Shown in pieces: positions 1-47,714 of a DNA stretch of 64,000 nt; positions within the stretch are counted from its first letter, which is position 1, and each line of letters opens with the position of its first letter. The translations under genes were made by a program, and so were the position numbers. Origin of the DNA: Minisyncoccia bacterium (GTDB lineage: Bacteria; Patescibacteriota; Minisyncoccia; Phycocordibacterales; UBA9973); NCBI GenBank assembly GCA_039809245.1, contig JBDHUP010000003.1, positions 41,069 through 105,068 on the forward strand. The letters are read 5' to 3'. The notes below the pieces were generated by a model. It had not been told where the DNA came from. It was given only the letters and a program-made list of their open reading frames with translations, and searched no databases.

Positions 1-180
1 AGACTAGATAAATTAAAGAAAGATATTATACCAGAGAGTATAATGATCCTTGCTAAAAAACGAGAGGAAGCTCGAGCAAACAAAAACTGGGCTAAGAGTG
101 ACGAACTCCGAGATAAAATTAAAGATCTAGGCTATGAAGTCAAAGATTCTGACACTGGCCCTAAGATATCTAAAATATAA
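1..180 (+). CDS. cysS: cysteinyl-tRNA synthetase, C-terminal fragment (gene starts upstream of window)
   Basis: In-frame ORF running off the 5' edge, TAA at 178-180. The tail ...KKREEARANKNWAKSDELRDKIKDLGYEV resembles the CysRS C-terminal helical tail (ARKxKDFxxADxIRDxLxxLGI). Confidence 0.5.
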   Translation, partial: RLDKLKKDIIPESIMILAKKREEARANKNWAKSDELRDKIKDLGYEVKDSDTGPKISKI

Positions 181-182
181 TT

Positions 183-1802
183 TTATTTAATCGCGTCTAA
201 TTGGAATGAGAAAGTAGATCCCTTACCCATACCTTCTGAAGTCACATCTACTGTGCCTTTATGAGCTTCGATAATTTGTTTAGCGAGATATAATCCGAGC
301 CCAGAACCTCCTGTGTTCATACGAGCGCCATCACCACGTGCGAATTTTTGGAATAGAGTTGCCTTTATTTCCGGTGTCATACCCATACCAGTATCTTTGA
401 CAGCAAACATAACCTTGTTTCCAGATTTTTTAACAGATACATTTATACTCCCTCCTTCAGGTGTATATTTTATAGAATTATCAATAAAGTTTAGAACTAC
501 TTGGCGAATCTTTTCCCTATCACCATTTACAGTACACTCTTCATCTTTATCTGATTCAAAGTTAAGCTTTAATCCTTTTTGCGAAGCAGTGATAGAAAGA
601 TCTTTAGACATATCACGTGCTATTTCTGAAAGAGAAAATGGTGTCATTTCATACTTCATACCACCGCTTTCAATCTTTGAAACGTTAAGGAAGTCTTCAA
701 CAATCTTGGTTAGATTCATAGTTGACTGGAAAATACGCTCAACTGCTTCTTTGGCTTTTGGATTAACTTCTCCGAAATCCCCTTCGATAATCATAGATGA
801 ATACCCCTTCATTGCAGTAAGTGGACTCCTAAGCTGATGTGAAGCAAGCGACAAGAATTCTGTTTTTAATTTATCCAAATCTTTAAGTTTATCATTAGCA
901 TCTTCAAGCTTTAAATTTGATTCCTCTAGTTTCATCCTTAATATTTCTAACCTTTCTCTCTGCTCAACTTCTTTTAATACACTTTTTACCAGAAGAACAC
1001 TTAAGAAAAGAAATGTTACAAAAAGAATTATGTTAAATATAAATTGAAAAGTTGTTTGAGAAAGGAAAGTTTGCACTAATGTAGCTGAAAGTAAAATAAA
1101 AGCCATTATTTCTGTAGCAAATGCTTTTACATTTAGTAGTCTATATTTCATAATTGAATAAGCTATACCGACAATTGTTGGTATCATAAACGCAGGTCCA
1201 TATAAAATAAATGAAGAATTACCTGTTGTATTTATGAGAATAAAATTTGTAGCAATAAGAAGTACATAGCTTGTAATAAATCCTATAAGCATAACTTGCC
1301 AACTTCTCTTCTCTTTTTGACTAGCATTAAGATATTTTTTAACAATTTCAAATATACTAAGCAAAAGAAGTCCAATTACAAATACAGCAAAAATAGGAAT
1401 AAGTTTGCCAGGGACAGGAACTGAGACTGATCCAACTAATCTAAGACTACTGAAAACACTTGGAGAGAGAGTCAGCCCCATAACTATTAATCCCAGTGTT
1501 CCAACAATAATGATCATCTTTTTTGAAATGATAAGATTTTGATTTGGAAAATTTTTAACAAAAAAGTAAAAGAAAACTATATGTGGAACAGCGAAGAAAA
1601 GGACTAATCTTGCCCAGAAAATTTGATCGACAAATATTGGATTGAGGGAAAAGTAATTTGCAAACGACCATAAAACAGTAGAAAGGCTTATGGCTTCGAA
1701 AAATCTGTTTGATACGCTTTTTCTATCATGATATACAGTAATGATACCTATATATAAAATGGCAAAACTTGCTATTAATGTAAAAATAAAGCCTGTATTC
1801 AT
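183..1802 (-). CDS. sensor histidine kinase, polytopic membrane N-terminus, HisKA + HATPase_c
   Basis: About 7 predicted TM helices in the N-terminal half, then a coiled coil. H-box LASHQLRSPLTAMKGY; N-box NFIDNSIKYT; G-boxes DTGMGM and GGSGLGLYLAK. No response regulator is adjacent. Confidence 0.85.
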   Translation of the reverse strand: MNTGFIFTLIASFAILYIGIITVYHDRKSVSNRFFEAISLSTVLWSFANYFSLNPIFVDQIFWARLVLFFAVPHIVFFYFFVKNFPNQNLIISKKMIIIVGTLGLIVMGLTLSPSVFSSLRLVGSVSVPVPGKLIPIFAVFVIGLLLLSIFEIVKKYLNASQKEKRSWQVMLIGFITSYVLLIATNFILINTTGNSSFILYGPAFMIPTIVGIAYSIMKYRLLNVKAFATEIMAFILLSATLVQTFLSQTTFQFIFNIILFVTFLFLSVLLVKSVLKEVEQRERLEILRMKLEESNLKLEDANDKLKDLDKLKTEFLSLASHQLRSPLTAMKGYSSMIIEGDFGEVNPKAKEAVERIFQSTMNLTKIVEDFLNVSKIESGGMKYEMTPFSLSEIARDMSKDLSITASQKGLKLNFESDKDEECTVNGDREKIRQVVLNFIDNSIKYTPEGGSINVSVKKSGNKVMFAVKDTGMGMTPEIKATLFQKFARGDGARMNTGGSGLGLYLAKQIIEAHKGTVDVTSEGMGKGSTFSFQLDAIK

Positions 1803-1803
1803 A

Positions 1804-3249
1804 TTAATTCTTCTTTACCCAATTATGCTTTGATTTCCTTGTGATAAATTTTTCATGACCAAATGGTACTAACTTTATTACTGGCAGGGCTTTCTCGTGT
1901 ATAGAATTATAAAGTTTTCTGTATTCTGTATTTAGTTCAACTAGATGTTTTAATATTGATTCAGAAATAATTTTATTAGTTTTTTCTGATACGGATACAT
2001 GTTGTTTTAATTCAATCTCTATGTTAAATATTTGTTCTCTAAAGTCACTAGACTGTTCTACTTGAACTATATACTTACCAGTTACTAGCGGAATAACTTC
2101 ATCATCTTCAAGACCAGCCTTTATGTTTTCAGGATAAATATTTAATGCATAGAAAGTAACCAATACATCATTCCTACCTTTAAGTATTAGTATTGAACCT
2201 TTCCATTTGTTTATATACTTTTTTATCTCGCTGTTGTATCCATGTCTCTTAAGTATCGCTTTAACTTGAGTTTGCGATAAAAGAGTTCCATGGTCCTTTA
2301 TATTATATCTAATTAATGGAATACCTGCCATTGCTGTGAAAACTAATTCACCATTTATTATTTCAAAATACGTTTTATGAGGATAATACATAACGGTTGT
2401 TGGAATGAACGACATTGGTCCATACAGTTCTTTTTTTAAACTTGTATCTTTAAGTGATAATTTTCTTAGTGTTATTGTAAGTGGAGTTTCGTGACCTATT
2501 GCTCCTGCATCAGCAGTACCATATATAGATATAGTACGAAATTCATCTTTAGGAGTATGCGTGATTTTATGAACTAATTCACGCCATTTTTCTGAAAAAT
2601 TCTCACCTGCAAGTATAAAATACATGTCCAACTTCTTGAAATTTACACCAGTAGCTTCTGCGTCAACAATGATATCCATTAAAAAAGGTGGGTATCCGAA
2701 TAAAATTAATGAATCAAAACCTTCTGTAAAATTCTTAAGCACTGATATAGTATCATTTACATCTATCCCAGGAGTTATAACGGTAATTTGAAATCCCTTT
2801 TTCCTTGCAACTTCTCTTATTGACGCCAAGGTAAATGTGCCTGCTATCCAGTTCCCCATAGAAAAACATATAACTACAAGTACCTTTTTGCCTTTTAATT
2901 TAAAGATATCTTGCAATATAATATTATGAAAAACTCCACCCCAAACTTCATGTTCATCATCTCGCGGCCAATAGAATGGCTGTCCTGAAGATCCAGAACT
3001 AGCAGAAATCATCGCTGGTACCTTATTATTAGGTAGCAAATCAGTAAAATTATGAGCTCTTAGGTAATTATTTTTGTCGGTAATTGGTAATGTTTCAAAG
3101 GCTTCTCGTGTTTTTATTAAGTTTGGTTTGATACCATATTTTTTAAGAAAATCTCTATAAGCTTTTACTTTTTTTACTGCAAATGAAAATGTTTCTATTG
3201 GTAAAAATTGTGATTTATTTGTGTTTTGCTTTTTTCTTTTTTTGTTCAT
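1804..3249 (-). CDS. adenylate-forming enzyme, phenylacetate-CoA ligase (PaaK) / coenzyme F390 synthetase-like family
   Basis: P-loop-like SSGSSGQP (compare TSGTTGKP of PaaK-type ANL enzymes). The 481 aa length and motif spacing fit the PaaK/F390-synthetase/CapK clade. One-nt gap to the downstream HK; 35-nt overlap with the upstream dehydrogenase. Confidence 0.55.
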   Translation of the reverse strand: MNKKRKKQNTNKSQFLPIETFSFAVKKVKAYRDFLKKYGIKPNLIKTREAFETLPITDKNNYLRAHNFTDLLPNNKVPAMISASSGSSGQPFYWPRDDEHEVWGGVFHNIILQDIFKLKGKKVLVVICFSMGNWIAGTFTLASIREVARKKGFQITVITPGIDVNDTISVLKNFTEGFDSLILFGYPPFLMDIIVDAEATGVNFKKLDMYFILAGENFSEKWRELVHKITHTPKDEFRTISIYGTADAGAIGHETPLTITLRKLSLKDTSLKKELYGPMSFIPTTVMYYPHKTYFEIINGELVFTAMAGIPLIRYNIKDHGTLLSQTQVKAILKRHGYNSEIKKYINKWKGSILILKGRNDVLVTFYALNIYPENIKAGLEDDEVIPLVTGKYIVQVEQSSDFREQIFNIEIELKQHVSVSEKTNKIISESILKHLVELNTEYRKLYNSIHEKALPVIKLVPFGHEKFITRKSKHNWVKKN

Positions 3250-4288
3250 ATATTTTCTGTTCAGCTAATTTATTTGCAATTTCAAGAGGTGGAAGATCTA
3301 ATTTTCTAGATGAGACTATAAGACTCTTAACAGTTTTACCTATTGCGTCTACTCTTTTATCTACACGACTCTTATTGTAACCTTTCTTATCGAGTTCATC
3401 AACAATATGTATGAGGCCACCACTATTTACAACATAGTCTGGTATATAACAAACCCCCATCTTATGAAAGACTTCTGCAAGAGAATCATCCGCTAGTTGA
3501 TTATTTGCACCACCTATAATGACTTTAGATTTTATTTCACTTATATTCTTTTTTGTAAATTCATTACCAAGAGCGCACGGCATGTATACATCCACAGGAA
3601 ATTTATGAATATATTTAGGGTTTACCACTGTAACATTAGGAAATCTTTTTTGTATATACTGAACTTTCTTTTTATCTATATCTGATATATAGATTTTAAC
3701 TCTATCTTTATATAACAATTTTACTAAACCCTCTCCTATTTTTCCGAGACCTTTAATAGCAACTGATATATCTTTCTTCTTTTTATTTTTAAAAAATAAA
3801 GGTGCTGCAGCCCATAATGATACATAAATACCTAATGATGCTATTTCAGAGGTAGTTCTTTTATTTCCGTTACCTTTTAGTATATATGGTGTATGTTGTG
3901 ACATAAAAATAACATCAGAATCAGAAATACCAACATCTGTACCAGTTGTATATTTACCTTTAAATGAATCTATAACTTTTGCATATGATCGTAAGAGTTC
4001 AGTTTTTTTCATTTTCTGGTTCGCAATAATTACTGTTTTTCCTCCACCGAAAGGTATCCCAGATATAGCACATTTGTAACTCATTGCTTTTGATAACCTT
4101 AATACATCAGTTAATGCTTCATTTTCTGATTTATATGGATATAATCTTGTTCCACCAGTGGCAGATCCAGGTCTGATATTATGCCAAGCTGAAAAACCTT
4201 TAAGGCCTGATGCTTTATCTTCAAAACGAAATACTTGTTGATGCTTATCAAATGCTTTGTTTTTCGATACGTTAATTTTCTTAATCAT
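3215..4288 (-). CDS. Glu/Leu/Phe/Val dehydrogenase family, leucine/phenylalanine dehydrogenase-like
   Basis: N-terminus FEDKASGLKGFSAWHNIRPGSATGGTRLYPY plus the catalytic-lysine motif IPFGGGKTVI. NAD Rossmann GLGKIGEGLV. 357 aa, typical LeuDH size. Confidence 0.8.
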   Translation of the reverse strand: MIKKINVSKNKAFDKHQQVFRFEDKASGLKGFSAWHNIRPGSATGGTRLYPYKSENEALTDVLRLSKAMSYKCAISGIPFGGGKTVIIANQKMKKTELLRSYAKVIDSFKGKYTTGTDVGISDSDVIFMSQHTPYILKGNGNKRTTSEIASLGIYVSLWAAAPLFFKNKKKKDISVAIKGLGKIGEGLVKLLYKDRVKIYISDIDKKKVQYIQKRFPNVTVVNPKYIHKFPVDVYMPCALGNEFTKKNISEIKSKVIIGGANNQLADDSLAEVFHKMGVCYIPDYVVNSGGLIHIVDELDKKGYNKSRVDKRVDAIGKTVKSLIVSSRKLDLPPLEIANKLAEQKIYEQKKKKAKHK

Positions 4289-5366
4289 ATTTATTTACAG
4301 AAGTACCGTCCAACTTTATTTCGTATCTTCCAGATTTTAGGTCTTCATTTAATAAAATTTTCTTAGCGAAATGTGTAAGCGCTGCTCCACGTAGGAAAGA
4401 TGATTCAGCTACTTGTGGAATGCTAGCAATAGTCAAACCAACTTCATCAAAAGATGAGTTTAATTTACTATCTAAATACTCTTTACCCATAAAGTCTTGC
4501 AGAAGTTCTACTCTATCTCTAAAAGTCCCTTCTCCTGGTTTGATAGATTCAATTTTTGAAATTACTTCATCTTTTAAATATCCAGATAAAAGGGGTAAAT
4601 CACCATCTTTATCGTAACGCTCCACATCTATAATGACATGGTCACCACTACCAGTAACCATAAGTACTGGTATTTTTAATTCTCGAGCCATTTCACGAAT
4701 CTTTATTTTATACCTAAGATTATCCATTTCTTCAATAAGAAGATCAACTCTTTTATCACCTAAAAACATCTCGATATTTTCATCTGTTATACCTTTTTCA
4801 AACATATCTATTTGCACAAATGGATTTATTTCATACATTTGCCTTGCAGATATATATGCTTTATTTATATTAAGATCAGTAAGCCCAGCACGAAATCTAT
4901 TTAAATTTGAGACCGATAATGGGTCAAAATCGGCAAGCTTCATATGTTCACCAATTCCTTCAAGAGTAAGGCAGACGGCTCCAGGGTTTCCCACGTTAAG
5001 GCCAGCTATAGCTATTGTTTTATTCTTTAGAATTTCTTGTTCTCTTTCTGTAATAAGATTTTTATTACGTGACATGCGTAATTTTTCATACTTATCTCTA
5101 TCTAAAATACGCACAGCTGTATTCTTCCAAGCAAAATATATCCAAACTCCTTCTTTATCGCTAACTTCTGGTATATCTGGATTAGTTAGGGCTTTGTGTG
5201 AAATTAAACTGGGATCCTCCACTAGAGATAACTCGTGTTTCTGATCTGCTAACGTATCTATTTTTGTAATTGATTTATTAACACTGCAAAGATCATTAAA
5301 AAGATCCATTTCTTCTTTTATAGAGCAATTAAATATTTTAGGTTTAAATTTTATATCATTATTCAT
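4281..5366 (-). CDS. ThiF/MoeB/HesA-family E1-like adenylyltransferase with ~110 aa N-terminal extension
   Basis: KTIAIAGLNVGNPGAVCLTLEGIG, a Rossmann with degenerate G-loop. LADFDPLSVSNLNRF (compare DxDxVexSNLnRQ). ARQMYEINPFVQI and VDLLIEEMDNLRYKI (compare DlVvDatDN). No CxxC zinc motif. Confidence 0.8.
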   Translation of the reverse strand: MNNDIKFKPKIFNCSIKEEMDLFNDLCSVNKSITKIDTLADQKHELSLVEDPSLISHKALTNPDIPEVSDKEGVWIYFAWKNTAVRILDRDKYEKLRMSRNKNLITEREQEILKNKTIAIAGLNVGNPGAVCLTLEGIGEHMKLADFDPLSVSNLNRFRAGLTDLNINKAYISARQMYEINPFVQIDMFEKGITDENIEMFLGDKRVDLLIEEMDNLRYKIKIREMARELKIPVLMVTGSGDHVIIDVERYDKDGDLPLLSGYLKDEVISKIESIKPGEGTFRDRVELLQDFMGKEYLDSKLNSSFDEVGLTIASIPQVAESSFLRGAALTHFAKKILLNEDLKSGRYEIKLDGTSVNKYD

Positions 5367-5368
5367 AA

Positions 5369-6346
5369 TTATGTGATAATTTTTTTCTCTATTGGATGAC
5401 GTGGAGTGACTCTATGGTCACCCTTTATTTCACCAATAGCAAACATAAACTGAGGTCGATCTTTTGTATTTACTACTTGTTGAACTTCTCTATATAAGTC
5501 ACCCATTTCGATTGAACCCACATAAATAGAAGTCTGTAAGCCTTGAGATTGTGCGCGTAGCATCAGTCTCTCAGCAAGACGACCAACATTTATCCAAGTT
5601 TCTTTTGTATTGGGACCAGAAATAACTGAAATAAGTGGAGCTGATGAAAGACTTTCTAAATTCTTTTTACCCAATATTCGGCCTACATTAAAAAATCTAA
5701 TCAAAATAGGAATAATTAACGAAACAACTAGAGGCATCTTTAGAGAATATCCTGGAAGTCCTTGTTTTTTGCTTGAAAGATTACTATTCATCCAATGATA
5801 CATTTCTTTTCTAAATGCAATACTTTTATAAGCCAAGAGCATAGCACGCTGTGTTAGAAGTGCTACATTCTTAATCTTTTCTTTATCTTCAACCAGAGTT
5901 AGATCGATACTAAATTGTTTAAAATTTACAACTTCTCCAAGTAGAGCTGTTTGAATATCATTACTCACAAGATTTGATTCAAAAATTCCTCTCGCGTTAA
6001 CACGTGTCAGTATAGTATCAAATAACAGTTTATCTTTTAAAGATATTGGAACTGAAATATTATTCAATGCTATAACTGCAACTTTATGAAGACTATCATC
6101 GATAGAAATTACTATCTCAGCTTTAAAACCTAGATTCGAAGCAGCTAAAGATAAATTCTCTAACATGCAACCCATACTTATGAATAAATCGCGACCTTCA
6201 CTATCGGCTTGAGGCAAAAATAGGTCAGGGTTGTAATAAACTTCTATAACATTATCTGTAATTTTAAAAAGCCATGGCTGGCTGTTGTGAGTAGAAGGCG
6301 CCCTTGTGGCGAGCGTTAGGATTTCTAGGATTTTAGTCTTTTCCAC
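5369..6346 (-). CDS. nitroreductase-family FMN oxidoreductase with large central insertion (SagB/McbC-like size)
   Basis: LATRAPSTHNSQPWLF (compare APSxxNxQPW). C-terminal LSSAPLISVISG...GLQTSIYVGS core. 325 aa with a ~100 aa insert containing a hydrophobic stretch. Three-nt gap to the E1-like gene. Confidence 0.75.
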   Translation of the reverse strand: MEKTKILEILTLATRAPSTHNSQPWLFKITDNVIEVYYNPDLFLPQADSEGRDLFISMGCMLENLSLAASNLGFKAEIVISIDDSLHKVAVIALNNISVPISLKDKLLFDTILTRVNARGIFESNLVSNDIQTALLGEVVNFKQFSIDLTLVEDKEKIKNVALLTQRAMLLAYKSIAFRKEMYHWMNSNLSSKKQGLPGYSLKMPLVVSLIIPILIRFFNVGRILGKKNLESLSSAPLISVISGPNTKETWINVGRLAERLMLRAQSQGLQTSIYVGSIEMGDLYREVQQVVNTKDRPQFMFAIGEIKGDHRVTPRHPIEKKIIT

Positions 6347-6402
6347 ACATACATTATAACATTCAGTGTTTATTAAGTATAGTTCTAAACTTTAATAATA
6401 AA

Positions 6403-6431
6403 TTGCAAAATAAACCTATTTTTTGTACTAT
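6403..6431 (+). promoter_or_regulatory. sigma70-like promoter TTGCAA-N17-TACTAT ending 6 nt before the agmatinase ATG (leaderless-type)
   Basis: ttgcaa at 6403-6408, 17-nt spacer, tactat at 6426-6431, ATG at 6438. No room for an SD. Confidence 0.4.
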
Positions 6432-6437
6432 ACGTAA

Positions 6438-7328
6438 ATGACTAAATCCATTTTAAATGAAAAAAATACAGAAAATGCTGATGTAGTAATAGTAAGTGCA
6501 GCATATGAAAAAACAGCTTCTTCTAGAAAAGGTACTATTGATGGGCCGAAAGCTATACTGAAATGTTTGGATAATAAACTTGAATTTTTTGATCGTACTT
6601 ATAAATGCGAAGTTAATAACTTTCTGAAAGTTGCTGAGAAGGATCTAGGAAGAATAAGTAAACTTAGTCCTGAAAAAGCATTAGAGAAGATTACAGAAGA
6701 ATGTGAAAAACTAGTAAGCGCCGGAAAGTTCGTATTTTTGCTTGGCGGTGAACACTCAGTGTCACTTGGTCTTTTCCAAGCACTTGCAAAGCACATAGAC
6801 CCTAAAGACACTACAATAGTACATATAGATGCTCATTGCGATCTTCGTGATACAGATGACGACTATAGCGACCATCCATCTAAATACGCTCACTCTTGCG
6901 TTTTGCATCGAGGTAATGAGCTTGGGTATAAACTTGTCCAAGTTGGAATCCGCACATACTCTGTAGATGAGTATAACTACTTCAGTGACCCAAAGAATAA
7001 TATTACTGTATTCGAATGGGGCAATGGGAATAAAGTTCCAACAGTAGAGGAAGTATTAGCATCCATAACAACTAAAAATATATATCTGACCATCGACGTA
7101 GATGGCTTTGACCCTGCTTATATGCCAGGAACTGGTACACCAGTCCAAGGCGGGCTTGAATGGTGGTATGGAATGGAACTAATCCAAAAGCTTGTAACTA
7201 CTAAAAATCTTATCGGTGCAGATATAGTAGAAGTTTCCCCTATGCGCGATTCAGTTCTAACTGAATACGGCGCAGCTCAACTTTGCTATACAATCATCGC
7301 AAATAAATTTAGAGATAAACTTAAATAA
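6438..7328 (+). CDS. speB: agmatinase / ureohydrolase (arginase family)
   Basis: Mn-binding motifs GGEHSVS, HIDAHCDLRD and TIDVDGFDP, then SPMRD. 296 aa. Confidence 0.8.
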   Translation: MTKSILNEKNTENADVVIVSAAYEKTASSRKGTIDGPKAILKCLDNKLEFFDRTYKCEVNNFLKVAEKDLGRISKLSPEKALEKITEECEKLVSAGKFVFLLGGEHSVSLGLFQALAKHIDPKDTTIVHIDAHCDLRDTDDDYSDHPSKYAHSCVLHRGNELGYKLVQVGIRTYSVDEYNYFSDPKNNITVFEWGNGNKVPTVEEVLASITTKNIYLTIDVDGFDPAYMPGTGTPVQGGLEWWYGMELIQKLVTTKNLIGADIVEVSPMRDSVLTEYGAAQLCYTIIANKFRDKLK

Positions 7329-7376
7329 AAAAAGGATAGCATACATGCTATCCTAACTTTTAATCTTAATTCTTGA

Positions 7377-7877
7377 TTAAAGAATATCTAATACTTTTAC
7401 CTGCTGAATTGAACTTCCTACCTGTAGTGAAAATGATTCATTTTTTTTCTTTCCAAGAAGAGCCATACCTAAAGGAGAGCTGGGTGTGATACAGATTAAT
7501 TTCTGACCCTCATACTCAATTTTTATACCAGACCCGCCAGGAAGTAAAAAATAATTTTCGTTGGTTGTGCTTTTCTTTTGAATAACAATTATTGCACCTA
7601 ATCTTGATTCAGTCATTGGGCCAAGCTTAGTGGAATTATCTGAATCAAATCTTCTCAAAAGATTCAGTTCATCAACCTTGTTATTGAATGCCTTATGTGC
7701 AACATCTACTACTGCAGTAAGTTGTGATCTTGTAGTGTCACTATGGGACTGCATTGCACCAGGCGCATCGTTGATGGCGCTATTCGTACCAGTTAATGAT
7801 TCACCCAGAGATTTTACCCTCTGATTTAGAGATTCAATGGCTTTAGATAGTATTGCTCTTTTATCCAAGTTTTTCAT
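7377..7877 (-). CDS. GreA/GreB-family transcript cleavage factor-like (divergent N-terminal coiled coil)
   Basis: C-terminal FKBP-like domain ITPSSPLGMALLGKKKNESFSL (compare VSxxSPIGRALIGKxxGDxV). The N-terminal coiled coil lacks the canonical acidic-tip ENAEY signature. Confidence 0.55.
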   Translation of the reverse strand: MKNLDKRAILSKAIESLNQRVKSLGESLTGTNSAINDAPGAMQSHSDTTRSQLTAVVDVAHKAFNNKVDELNLLRRFDSDNSTKLGPMTESRLGAIIVIQKKSTTNENYFLLPGGSGIKIEYEGQKLICITPSSPLGMALLGKKKNESFSLQVGSSIQQVKVLDIL

Positions 7878-7985
7878 TTTCTTTAATTTTTTAGTTTGAT
7901 CTATTATAGCAGTAATATACTAAATGTCAATATCACTCCATAAAAATTTTCATATCTTTAGATTATTATGTTATAATATAGAAAT

Positions 7986-8558
7986 ATGCAGAAAGAAATT
8001 GAAGCAACTTTTCTATCAGTTAATAAAGAATTAATTAGAGAAAAACTTGAAAATAATGGATTTAAATTAAAATACCCTGAGTATTTAATGAGAAGAAAAA
8101 CTTTTGATTTCCCGAATAAAACCCCTGGTATCAATAAATGGGGACGTGTAAGACAGGAATTCAATAAAGTTACCATGACAATAAAAGAGATGAGGGGAAC
8201 TGGTATAAATGATGTTTTCGAAAGTGAAATTATCGTTAATGATTTCGATAAAGCTACTGAATTCTTTGAAGCATGTGGTGTTTTCATGAAAGCATTTCAG
8301 GAAAATATGCGTGAAGTATGGACTAATAGTACAGTAGAAGTAACCATAGATACATGGCCTGGATTGAAACCGTTTATAGAAATTGAAGGTCAGACGGAAG
8401 AAATAGTAAGAAATATATCAGAGAAATTAAATTTTGATTTTAAAGAAGCTGTTTTTGGAAGCATAGATTTAGTATATGAAAAAGAATTAGGAATTTCAGC
8501 AAAAGAAATCATTAGTATGCCAGAAATTACATTTAAAAATCCTCCTAAATCAAAATAA
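7986..8558 (+). CDS. CYTH-domain protein (class IV adenylate cyclase / triphosphate tunnel metalloenzyme-like)
   Basis: N-terminal EIEATF (compare EIExKF of CYTH). Alternating acidic/basic beta-strand pattern. 190 aa. Confidence 0.6.
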   Translation: MQKEIEATFLSVNKELIREKLENNGFKLKYPEYLMRRKTFDFPNKTPGINKWGRVRQEFNKVTMTIKEMRGTGINDVFESEIIVNDFDKATEFFEACGVFMKAFQENMREVWTNSTVEVTIDTWPGLKPFIEIEGQTEEIVRNISEKLNFDFKEAVFGSIDLVYEKELGISAKEIISMPEITFKNPPKSK

Positions 8559-8590
8559 AAACAAGGCGTCAAAATTGATGCCTTGTTATT

Positions 8591-9541
8591 TTAGATGATT
8601 ACATTACCTTTTTGAATTTCATTAACTGTTGGGCTGTTTATAAAATCCGTCCAAGGGATAAGTACATCTGTCGTCTGTTTATAAATACATATACGTACAT
8701 AATACTCGTTCATTATACGTTCTACTCTAACTCCATAGAATCCCTCATAGCACTTATCCTTTGCAGGACAATTGCTACAAATACTATTTAAGTAATATGG
8801 AAAAGCTATTTTAACAGATAGAATTTTGCCTTCAGAAGTAATATAGCGATTGGTGACATTAGAACTACCAGCTCTTTGATACCCGTTAATTTTAGAGGCA
8901 CCAAGATTTTTTAGTATATCTTCAATCACTTCCTGGCTTTCAAATGGTTCAACTAGATTATTTAATAACCTAATTTCCGGAACTCTGTCTTTTTGCAAAT
9001 TTAACAATGTTTTTACAGATTTTAACGTTTTATCAAAGTCACCATAAGCAACGATGTTAATTCTTGAATCTATACCACTTTCTACGATATTCTTAACATT
9101 ATTAAACTGGTTTTCCAAAGCATTTTCCGCCCATGATAAATTCTTCTTAACAGATTCCAGGCTTAGTAAGTCTTTGGCAGATGTATCGTGAATGCTGACA
9201 ACAACTTTTGTAAGACCAGCATTCTTGAATTTGCTCCACTCGTCGACTGAGATTTTTTTTATGCCATTTGTAGTTACAGAGATTTCATCGGACAATTTAC
9301 TTAATCCTGAAACAATAGACATAAACTCAGGGTGTATGGTAGGCTCTCCTCCGGTTAGCATTATTCGGCCTATGGCTGTCTTTTTCATTATCTGATCTAT
9401 ACAGTTGTAGAAATCATCATTAGGTATAACGTTCTTGATATTTTTCATATCTCCTTCTTCATGACAAAAAGAGCAAGTACGGTTACACGTGCCAGTCAAT
9501 TTTATTCTAATTGCTGGCATAGTTATGGTCATGTTTTCCAT
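8591..9541 (-). CDS. radical SAM enzyme, MoaA-like (GTP 3',8-cyclase family) / viperin-like
   Basis: CNRTCSFC (CxxxCxxC). MLTGGEPTIHPEF (compare MoaA RLTGGEPSL). VTTNGIKK (compare VTTNGyrL). AGLTKVVVSIHDTS (compare GLtginvSvDSLD). C-terminal CSNCPAKDKC auxiliary cysteines. Confidence 0.75.
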   Translation of the reverse strand: MENMTITMPAIRIKLTGTCNRTCSFCHEEGDMKNIKNVIPNDDFYNCIDQIMKKTAIGRIMLTGGEPTIHPEFMSIVSGLSKLSDEISVTTNGIKKISVDEWSKFKNAGLTKVVVSIHDTSAKDLLSLESVKKNLSWAENALENQFNNVKNIVESGIDSRINIVAYGDFDKTLKSVKTLLNLQKDRVPEIRLLNNLVEPFESQEVIEDILKNLGASKINGYQRAGSSNVTNRYITSEGKILSVKIAFPYYLNSICSNCPAKDKCYEGFYGVRVERIMNEYYVRICIYKQTTDVLIPWTDFINSPTVNEIQKGNVII

Positions 9542-46898: not shown

Positions 46899-47020
46899 AA
46901 TGTGTATGCGATAGAGAACTCGGTCACAAGTATTTTTCTGCTGAAAAATCTCGCGACCCCGACTCGGCTCGTCAGCCTCCGTCTTTCAAATCCTCACCCT
47001 GACAAAATTGTCAGGCGCTG

Positions 47021-47093
47021 TGCGCGGTGAGGGATTTGAACCCCCGGCCTTCCCCACGTCAAGGGGACGCTCTACCAACTGAGCTAACCGCGC
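47021..47093 (-). tRNA. tRNA-Val (anticodon GAC)
   Basis: The reverse complement folds as a cloverleaf: acceptor gcgcggt/accgcgc, D-arm gctc-agttggta-gagc, anticodon arm tcccc-ttGACgt-gggga, T-arm ggggg-ttcaaat-ccctc, discriminator A. No encoded CCA. Confidence 0.9.
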
Positions 47094-47640: not shown

Positions 47641-47642
47641 TG

Positions 47643-47714
47643 TGACCCTACCGGGAATCGAACCCGGATTACCGGCTTGAAAAGCCGATGTCCTAACCGT
47701 TAGACGATAGGGCC
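47643..47714 (-). tRNA. tRNA-Glu (anticodon UUC)
   Basis: Reverse complement ggccctatcgtctaacggttaggacatcggcttTTCaagccggtaatccgggttcgattcccggtagggtca. Anticodon arm tcggc-ttTTCaa-gccgg, T-loop ttcgatt, Glu-type D-arm gtcta..ggac. Confidence 0.88.

Follow-up and report, generated by a model that had tools for sequence, protein, structure and literature searches.

The DNA examined here is a 64,000-nucleotide stretch of a Minisyncoccia bacterium (assembly GCA_039809245.1, contig JBDHUP010000003.1, positions 41,069 to 105,068; hereafter, the window). Between positions 183 and 6346 it carries a five-gene operon that we lean toward reading as a Patescibacteria-type pathway for oxazolones (azlactones) or N-acyl-dehydroamino acids, joined to a dedicated seven-transmembrane (7TM) kinase and possibly making a signal; this reading is built on homology and gene context. 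From first gene to last, the operon encodes an Acg-type flavoenzyme of the nitroreductase superfamily (the FDO of the module, here NTR; 6346 to 5369, 325 amino acids, GTG start), a predicted ThiF/E1-like cyclase (E1; 5366 to 4281, 361 amino acids), an ELFV amino-acid dehydrogenase (DH; 4288 to 3215, 357 amino acids), a PaaK-fold ligase (LIG; 3249 to 1804, 481 amino acids), and a 7TM sensor histidine kinase (HK; 1802 to 183, 539 amino acids), and the family assignments of these proteins are backed by Pfam and NCBIfam scans. All five open reading frames (ORFs) lie on the minus strand and follow one another at +2, -8, -35, and +1 nucleotides. An initial annotation, made from the letters alone, had described co-directional, tightly packed genes forming a single operon. 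We reproduced its coordinates and junctions, and the same genes co-occur in dozens of divergent genomes. A promoter and terminator scan, which returned nothing above chance, placed no terminator-like site on the minus strand within the operon.

Oxazolone biosynthesis by ThiF and FDO enzymes was discovered between 2020 and 2025, with OxzAB as the founding example. The split pair TyzB/TyzC makes tyrazolones together with TyzA (PMC10404671), and TrzS (Rv1355c) makes N-acyl tryptazolones together with the acyltransferase TrzA (PMC12856293). The biochemistry of these homologues has been established experimentally (PMC10404671; PMC12856293; bioRxiv 10.1101/2020.06.11.147165). The papers call the physiological role of the products unknown, and their authors speculate on signaling.

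Judged by its sequence, E1 is a member of the OxzB/TyzB/TrzS cyclase clade and not of the ThiF, MoeB, TcdA, or Uba clades. It matched the NCBIfam Rv1355c family model at 296 bits (4e-88; residues 5 to 353 on model positions 9 to 336 of 722), and the other ThiF/MoeB/TcdA-type models in the NCBIfam scan scored no higher than 75 bits. E1 stays under the Rv1355c equivalog cutoff of 476 bits, as expected for a protein that matches half of a fusion model. Residues 1 to 352 of E1 aligned with the first 330 residues of an Rv1355c-family fusion protein from a Rhodococcus plasmid at 34% identity. Because this alignment runs from residue 1, it covers the N-terminal extension of about 110 amino acids that had been regarded as unexplained; the extension is common to TrzS-type enzymes. 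The G-loop, which had been regarded as degenerate, reads AGLNVG in E1 and VGLSVG in the Rhodococcus fusion and is likewise common to active TrzS-type enzymes. Among 92 homologues of E1 from the Candidate Phyla Radiation (CPR), conservation reaches 95% or more at 32 positions; three actinobacterial fusions carry the identical residue at 29 of them. D215, in an EEMDN motif, is one of these 29 and aligned with the Asp of an EECDS motif in the fusions. Mutation of D217 abolishes cyclase activity in TrzS (PMC12856293), and we take D215 to be the counterpart of this residue, equating the two from their near-identical positions.

AlphaFold2 modeled E1 with confidence over its whole length (pLDDT 92.9), the N-terminal alpha/beta domain included, and the best fold matches of the model were AclA (9egb), ThiF, PaaA, TcdA, MoeB, and MccB. 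The top structural match, PDB 9egb, was released in 2025 under the title "AclA from Tenacibaculum discolor in complex with substrate" and gave a TM-score of 0.82 on the target. We predict that E1 is an ATP-dependent cyclase, equivalent to TyzB and to the N-terminal halves of TrzS and OxzB.

Its neighbor NTR has the sequence of an Acg/FDO-type flavoenzyme, corresponding to TyzC and to the C-terminal half of TrzS and OxzB, and its predicted activity is that of a Calpha-Cbeta desaturase. NTR scored 189.5 bits against the NCBIfam Acg model NF047509 over residues 9 to 321 (cutoff, 199). It also matched the Rv1355c model in its C-terminal half at 6e-17 and the Acg structure PDB 2ymv at 2e-9, and its identity with the FDO half of the Rhodococcus fusion is 24%. 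NTR is covered over its full length by the Acg model and is not a plain nitroreductase with an insertion; the initial annotation had described an insertion-bearing flavoprotein of the nitroreductase family. Eleven residues are common to NTR and the three fusions (A16, P17, S18, N21, Q23, P24, W25, R52, R115, R119, and W185). The APSxxNxQPW motif of the flavin mononucleotide (FMN) site is present in NTR and in the FDO halves of the fusions, and R52, R115, and R119 are found in the CPR NTRs and in the fusions alike. In TrzS, R540 and Q651 matter for desaturation (PMC12856293). The initial annotation had seen in E1 and the flavoprotein a functional partnership, and this view holds well: by homology with the oxazolone synthetases, the two would carry out cyclodehydration and dehydrogenation. 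The pairing, which it had compared with McbB/McbC, corresponds in split form to the characterized oxazolone synthetases OxzB, TyzB/TyzC, and TrzS (PMC10404671, PMC12856293).

We collected about 100 Patescibacteria loci through context look-ups and two collection scans. Thirty-eight of them, 36 of which are nonredundant at 90% identity, had at least 5 kb on either side of E1 (the full-flank set), and their E1 proteins are a median of 40% and a minimum of 27% identical in pairwise comparisons. LIG, the 7TM kinase, and NTR were each present in 37 of the 38 full-flank loci (NTR lying once on the opposite strand), and DH was present in 12. Four of the five genes thus form a strongly conserved module whose arrangement is far from chance, and the gene neighborhood comparison suggested with the initial annotation shows that co-localization recurs around divergent E1s. 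NTR adjoins E1 in 77 of 89 loci. Core genes are separated by a median of 3 nucleotides, and gene order varies, with NTR-E1-LIG-HK, LIG-NTR-E1-HK, E1-LIG-NTR-HK, DH-LIG-E1-NTR-HK, and others represented. The flanks are diverse; outside the module, even the commonest family, a response regulator, is present in at most 20 of 102 loci, and a TrmB-type regulator adjoins the module in 5 of the 38 full-flank loci. The hosts are Nomura-, Yanofsky-, Lloyd-, and Nealsonbacteria, other Paceibacteria, and many Saccharibacteria. One metagenomic locus (L146, 473 to 2686) encodes a true E1-NTR fusion of 737 amino acids inside this otherwise split Patescibacteria-type clade.

Some loci depart from the common pattern. 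Locus L127 (1412 to 8243) has two E1/NTR pairs around one ligase, in the order NTR-E1-LIG-E1-NTR-HK, one pair being of the window type and the other of a divergent type. In locus L003 (10669 to 11610), an M19 peptidase occupies the slot between LIG and the kinase. N-acyl dehydroamino acids are the hydrolysis products of unsaturated oxazolones, and this peptidase, whose family contains dehydropeptidases, could act on them. Two families with no Pfam match, of about 306 and about 435 amino acids, stand in or beside the module in 5 to 7 loci each (L104, 1677 to 2597, and L141, 903 to 2210).

The known oxazolone pathways begin with an N-acyltransferase, and in the module its place is probably taken by LIG. 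This protein falls in no Pfam family and scored 49 bits against the NCBIfam PaaK model TIGR02155 (cutoff, 646). It therefore lies outside the PaaK equivalog and has only the ANL/PaaK fold and adenylation motifs in common with it. The AlphaFold2 model (pLDDT 88) matched PaaK1 and PaaK2 by Foldseek at E values of about 1e-20 (PaaK2, 3e-20), followed by BT_0428, NatL2 (3e-17), AjiA1, and ClxA, with GH3 amido synthetases as more distant matches; identity to the PaaK structures is 16 to 17%. Conserved features of the LIG family are a P-loop-like SSGSSG motif, the sequence YGTAD, and a Lys near the C terminus; the family comprises at least 1,280 clusters, mostly from Patescibacteria. No paa genes were found near LIG, either among the window neighbors or among the conserved neighbors across related loci. 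A GNAT or N-acyl amino acid synthase (NAS) type of N-acyltransferase was also absent from the scanned window neighbors, and no such family is conserved in the 102 related loci, whereas actinomycete members of the E1 clade have adjoining GNAT genes and no ligase. Because LIG and acyltransferase partners are mutually exclusive across the E1 clade, we propose that the ligase probably replaces the N-acyltransferase, so that LIG would make the N-acyl amino acid in place of OxzA, TyzA, or TrzA. There is a precedent in the PaaK-family enzymes NatL2 and ClxA, which work independently of coenzyme A (CoA) and transfer the acyl group of an acyl-adenylate straight to another small molecule, forming an ester or an amide (PMC7204872, PMC12519233).

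Homologues of the ligase that are about 35% identical also occur in heterocystous cyanobacteria, in locus L036 (3797 to 7710) and 31 other Nostocales loci (among L034 to L083). They are flanked by two divergently transcribed genes for Ser/Thr protein kinases of about 565 and about 720 amino acids, which places this uncatalogued ligase family beside signaling kinases in a second, unrelated context.

DH gives a hint about the acyl or amino substrate. This protein matched the Pfam families ELFV_dehydrog_N and ELFV_dehydrog and was about equally close to leucine dehydrogenase (LeuDH; 3vpx, 1e-70) and tryptophan dehydrogenase (TrpDH; 5b37, 1e-69); at 293 bits against the ScyB equivalog (cutoff, 600), it is a family member only. 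K72, K84, and D118, the catalytic residues, are invariant among module-linked dehydrogenases, and DH has the sequence of a catalytically intact ELFV enzyme. At the specificity positions, G116 and L292 are as in TrpDH 5b37, whereas LeuDH has Ala113 and Val291; the parallel positions of phenylalanine dehydrogenase (PheDH) are G124 and L307. Among 23 module-linked dehydrogenases, G116 is found in all and L292 in 21. The enzyme had been annotated as a Leu/Phe dehydrogenase, and the family stands, but the pocket resembles that of Trp/PheDH rather than a Leu-type one. Such a pocket would fit the aromatic amino acids Tyr, Phe, and Trp, from which known oxazolones are made.

The gene for DH is directly upstream of LIG in 22 of 23 cases. 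Six full-flank loci without DH have aminotransferases (class I/II or class IV) beside the module, so that an amino acid or 2-oxo acid enzyme of one kind or the other is present in 18 of 38 full-flank loci. The position of DH upstream of LIG, the Trp/PheDH-like pocket, and the substituting aminotransferases together suggest a bulky or aromatic amino acid, or the corresponding 2-oxo acid, as a substrate of LIG. In locus L170 (371 to 6145), genes for an OmpR-type response regulator, a Trp-repressor-family protein, and anthranilate synthase component I come after the module kinase, an arrangement that is a possible link to aromatic amino-acid metabolism.

The last gene of the operon encodes HK, with an N-terminal HisKA_7TM domain followed by HisKA and HATPase_c domains, all intact by Pfam. 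In 74 of 75 loci, HK comes after every core gene; the gene before it is E1 in 31 loci, LIG in 27, and NTR in 16. As the initial annotation had said, no response regulator is nearby; phmmer with two receiver-domain queries found none in the 64-kb window. The 7TM sensor domain belongs to a family with 715 representatives at an E value of 1e-10 or lower. We followed an exhaustive HMMER search for sensor relatives with four context look-ups, in one of which the contig was too short to inform. For relatives at 26 to 35% identity, module genes (FDO/ThiF) adjoined the kinase in all three informative contexts. Locus L173 has the full NTR-E1-DH-LIG-HK block, and in L170 NTR is directly upstream of the kinase. 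A common order of kinase, TrpRS/AspRS (the tryptophanyl- and aspartyl-tRNA synthetases), and ScpAB was seen in three of the first four contexts. We considered inherited synteny as a cause of the kinase linkage and rejected it. The flanks are diverse over 102 loci and the distant sensor relatives stay linked, which argues that the linkage of HK is functional. HK is a candidate receptor for the product or a candidate regulator of the module.

Two of the kinase loci have features of their own. In L173 (5186 to 7432), a GAF domain is inserted in the module kinase between the 7TM region and HisKA. In L171 (8001 to 13209; GCA_026004875.1), which does not look like a CPR sequence, the HisKA_7TM kinase overlaps an Acg-type FDO gene and faces a 793-amino-acid protein whose C-terminal part is an Rv1355c-type ThiF. 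We rejected this protein as a ligase-ThiF fusion since its N-terminal half has no similarity to LIG. Its N-terminal stretch of about 460 amino acids matched nothing in Pfam or the PDB, nor LIG, and may be a third kind of first enzyme.

From these assignments we propose the following route. DH would convert a bulky or aromatic amino acid to the corresponding 2-oxo acid or the reverse, supplying either the acyl donor or the amine acceptor, a step for which an adjoining aminotransferase may substitute elsewhere. LIG would then adenylate a free carboxylic acid and link it to an amino acid at the amino group, giving an N-acyl amino acid without an N-acyltransferase dependent on acyl-CoA or acyl carrier protein; the mutually exclusive partners and the precedent of NatL2 and ClxA point to this step. 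E1 would adenylate the carboxylate of the N-acyl amino acid, and attack by the amide oxygen would close the 5(4H)-oxazolone, as has been shown for the homologous TrzS and TyzB. NTR, by homology to TyzC and the FDO domain of TrzS, would desaturate the Calpha-Cbeta bond to yield an unsaturated oxazolone, which could be hydrolyzed to an N-acyl dehydroamino acid. In the least certain step, HK might sense the hydrophobic product, or a related cue, and signal through an unlinked response regulator. In agr- and com-type operons, signal maturation genes are co-transcribed with a histidine kinase receptor of polytopic-membrane type, and the proposed combination of signal synthesis and a polytopic receptor kinase would be alike. 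Most likely, the operon acts on amino-acid-derived small molecules via acyl-adenylates, one of the options that the initial annotation had offered.

Several observations weigh against this proposal. The similarity of NTR to the FDO half of the fusion is only 24% identity, R540 of TrzS was not placed on the NTR sequence, and NTR scores higher against the Acg/Rv3131 model, yet just under its cutoff (189.5 versus 199 bits). The substrates of the Acg/Rv3131 family itself are unknown. Known FDO desaturations depend on O2, and many Patescibacteria live in anoxic groundwater and are often anaerobic. Most PaaK-fold enzymes form CoA thioesters, and an amide-forming role for LIG is inferred. The LIG relatives that are about 35% identical, from Nostocales, Streptosporangiales, and Sorangium, lack a nearby ThiF, FDO, or 7TM kinase, in contexts whose reading in high-GC genomes is clouded by shadow ORFs. 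DH is present in only about a third of the loci. No response regulator adjoins HK here; among 59 related loci, one directly follows the kinase in only 5, and a stand-alone response regulator lies somewhere in the locus in 23. Finally, co-transcription fits an HK that regulates the pathway as well as one that senses its product.

This last point opens the way to a reading in which the chemistry is the same and HK senses an external or host cue and controls the module, the product being a membrane lipid, a stress protectant, or an antimicrobial. We regard this as possible but rather doubtful. Co-transcription alone cannot separate product sensing from pathway regulation, stress roles for oxazolones have been suggested in Proteobacteria and Mycobacterium (PMC12856293), the related N-acyl tyrosines are antimicrobial, and a TrmB-type regulator stands beside the module in 5 of 38 loci. 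However, the retention of HK in 37 of 38 loci over about 27 to 100% E1 identity, and its last position in 74 of 75, are more typical of synthase-receptor pairs, and a sensor consisting purely of a membrane-embedded 7TM domain suits a hydrophobic ligand. A different doubt concerns LIG, which could be an ordinary aryl- or acyl-CoA ligase feeding an unlinked acyltransferase; alternatively, the module could degrade or salvage aromatic acids and amino acids, with HK sensing the substrate. Structurally, LIG is indeed best matched by PaaK1 and PaaK2, which are phenylacetate-CoA ligases, and by BT_0428, a putative acyl-CoA ligase; its profile match, if weak, is to PaaK, and the adjoining DH or aminotransferase could be catabolic. 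We nevertheless consider this improbable. LIG reaches 49 of the 646 bits that the PaaK cutoff demands, no conserved paa genes, thioesterase, or acyltransferase are nearby, and CoA-independent ligases exist in the PaaK family. Moreover, LIG is tied in 37 of 38 loci to a ThiF/FDO pair whose known chemistry is biosynthetic.

The initial annotation had also pointed to ribosomally synthesized and posttranslationally modified peptides (RiPPs) or to a tagging system. In such a scheme, E1 would activate the C terminus of a ribosomal peptide or ubiquitin-like (Ubl) protein and the flavoprotein would oxidize an azoline, as in McbBCD- or SagBCD-type pathways. Azole RiPP systems do pair an E1-like protein with an FMN dehydrogenase, the E1-like RiPP enzymes PaaA and MccB are among the structural matches of E1, and E1 has a folded N-terminal domain whose role is not known. 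That domain is common to TrzS, though, and TrzS acts on a small molecule; the Rv1355c model was matched at 296 bits against 75 or less for the ThiF/MoeB/TcdA-type models. In ORFs of 20 to 130 amino acids within 2.5 kb of the module, no conserved precursor or Ubl ORF was found, the small ORF families being confined to 8 or fewer of about 103 loci, and those that recur are flanking ribosomal proteins, response regulators, and shadow ORFs. The intergenic region at 6347 to 6437, which the initial annotation had proposed searching together with the operon flanks, is too short to hold a precursor ORF, and the search of region and flanks gave no conserved small ORF. Nor was a YcaO protein found among the nine proteins scanned between 183 and 9541 or among the conserved neighbors of related loci, in keeping with the earlier remark that neither YcaO nor a precursor was visible. 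We therefore think it very improbable that the module belongs to a RiPP or tagging system.

A comparison with described systems sets the proposed oxazolone pathway of the CPR module apart from its nearest relatives. TrzAS (Rv1356c-Rv1355c of Mycobacterium tuberculosis and Mycobacterium smegmatis; PMC12856293) has the N-terminal extension, G-loop, and adenylation Asp of E1, with NTR corresponding to its FDO half, and the chemistry predicted here, ATP-dependent cyclization followed by desaturation, would be the same. TrzS is a fusion, whereas E1 and NTR are split in the CPR module; the host is an actinomycete rather than a member of the Patescibacteria; and identity, measured on the Rhodococcus fusion, is 34% for E1 and 24% for the FDO. 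In place of the N-acyltransferase TrzA, the CPR module has the PaaK-fold ligase, and it adds a 7TM kinase and DH. TyzACB of M. tuberculosis (PMC10404671) is similar in that the stand-alone ThiF-like cyclase TyzB and the stand-alone, lid-bearing FDO TyzC adjoin each other in one operon, but the tyz cluster lacks a kinase, a ligase, and a dehydrogenase. More generally, the published clusters for oxazolones and N-acyl-dehydrotyrosines pair a ThiF protein with a member of the nitroreductase superfamily on aromatic amino acids, as we propose here. All of them need an N-acyl amino acid synthase, "the hallmark protein" in their authors' words, of which the CPR loci have no conserved example, and they have neither a PaaK-type ligase nor a linked sensor kinase.

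LIG shares the compact PaaK-type ANL fold with NatL2, AjiA1, and ClxA of benzoxazole biosynthesis (Foldseek E values of about 1e-15 to 1e-17; PMC7204872, PMC12519233, PMC9400959), which are 13 to 16% identical to it, use hydroxy- or aminobenzoates, and lack ThiF and FDO partners. In McbBCD and SagBCD, the systems for thiazole/oxazole-modified microcins (TOMMs) or linear azole-containing peptides (LAPs), a YcaO protein and a precursor peptide are expected beside the E1-like and FMN genes, and neither turned up among the scanned window proteins, the conserved neighbors, or the small ORFs near the module. The agr and com operons resemble the module in co-transcribing biosynthetic genes with a multitransmembrane kinase that has no extracytoplasmic domain. 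They differ from it in using ribosomal peptide signals and in having a response regulator in the operon, which the CPR module usually lacks, and the two have no sequence relationship.

The ThiF and FDO core is therefore, as far as its sequence tells, of the already known oxazolone-synthetase type. In the literature that we searched, the five-gene set is absent, in agreement with the initial annotation, which had called the combination undescribed. New with respect to that literature are the ligase in place of the acyltransferase, the obligate 7TM kinase, the optional DH or aminotransferase, and the spread of the module across the Patescibacteria, whose genomes are reduced. A further and bolder proposal, which we put forward only tentatively and hold to be unlikely as it stands, is that Paceibacteria and Saccharimonadia carry a widely conserved cassette for making and sensing their own signal, with the 7TM kinase as its receptor. 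If true, this would be the first candidate small-molecule system for cell-cell or symbiont-host signaling in ultra-small episymbionts and would give the first concrete clue to the physiological role of oxazolones. The kinase linkage is a testable genetic argument that oxazolone-type molecules are sensed. The PaaK-fold family, with its at least 1,280 members and no Pfam model, would offer a new entry route into the pathway and may have biocatalytic value. The module is also one of few conserved specialized-metabolite-like cassettes in CPR bacteria, whose interactions with their hosts are poorly understood. Some Saccharibacteria can be cultivated with their hosts, and as Saccharibacteria carry the module, experiments are conceivable.

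Around the operon, the window holds the following. A divergent intergenic region of 91 bp (6347 to 6437), probably the promoter region, separates the operon from an agmatinase gene that is divergent to it (6438 to 7328). A promoter-like site was called at 6456 to 6427 on the minus strand; sites in positions 1 to 7500 did not exceed the shuffled expectation overall, and this one is hence weak. G+C content is about 31%, the names of homologues point to Patescibacteria/Parcubacteria as the source, and the only RNA genes found in positions 1 to 64000 are those for tRNA-Val (47020 to 47093) and tRNA-Glu (47642 to 47714). In two genomes, the genes directly upstream of the module are polyamine genes: the agmatinase in the window and, in locus L002 (3690 to 6837), genes for an Orn/DAP/Arg-type decarboxylase, a CN-hydrolase, and a protein of agmatine-deiminase type (PAD_porph). 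Their proximity may be coincidence or synteny. Upstream of the agmatinase, three further genes (7377 to 9541) encode a 166-amino-acid protein with the GreA/GreB C-terminal domain only, a 190-amino-acid protein with a weak match to the class IV adenylate cyclase model (cyaB, TIGR00318), and a 316-amino-acid MoaA-like radical SAM protein that scored far under the MoaA cutoffs.

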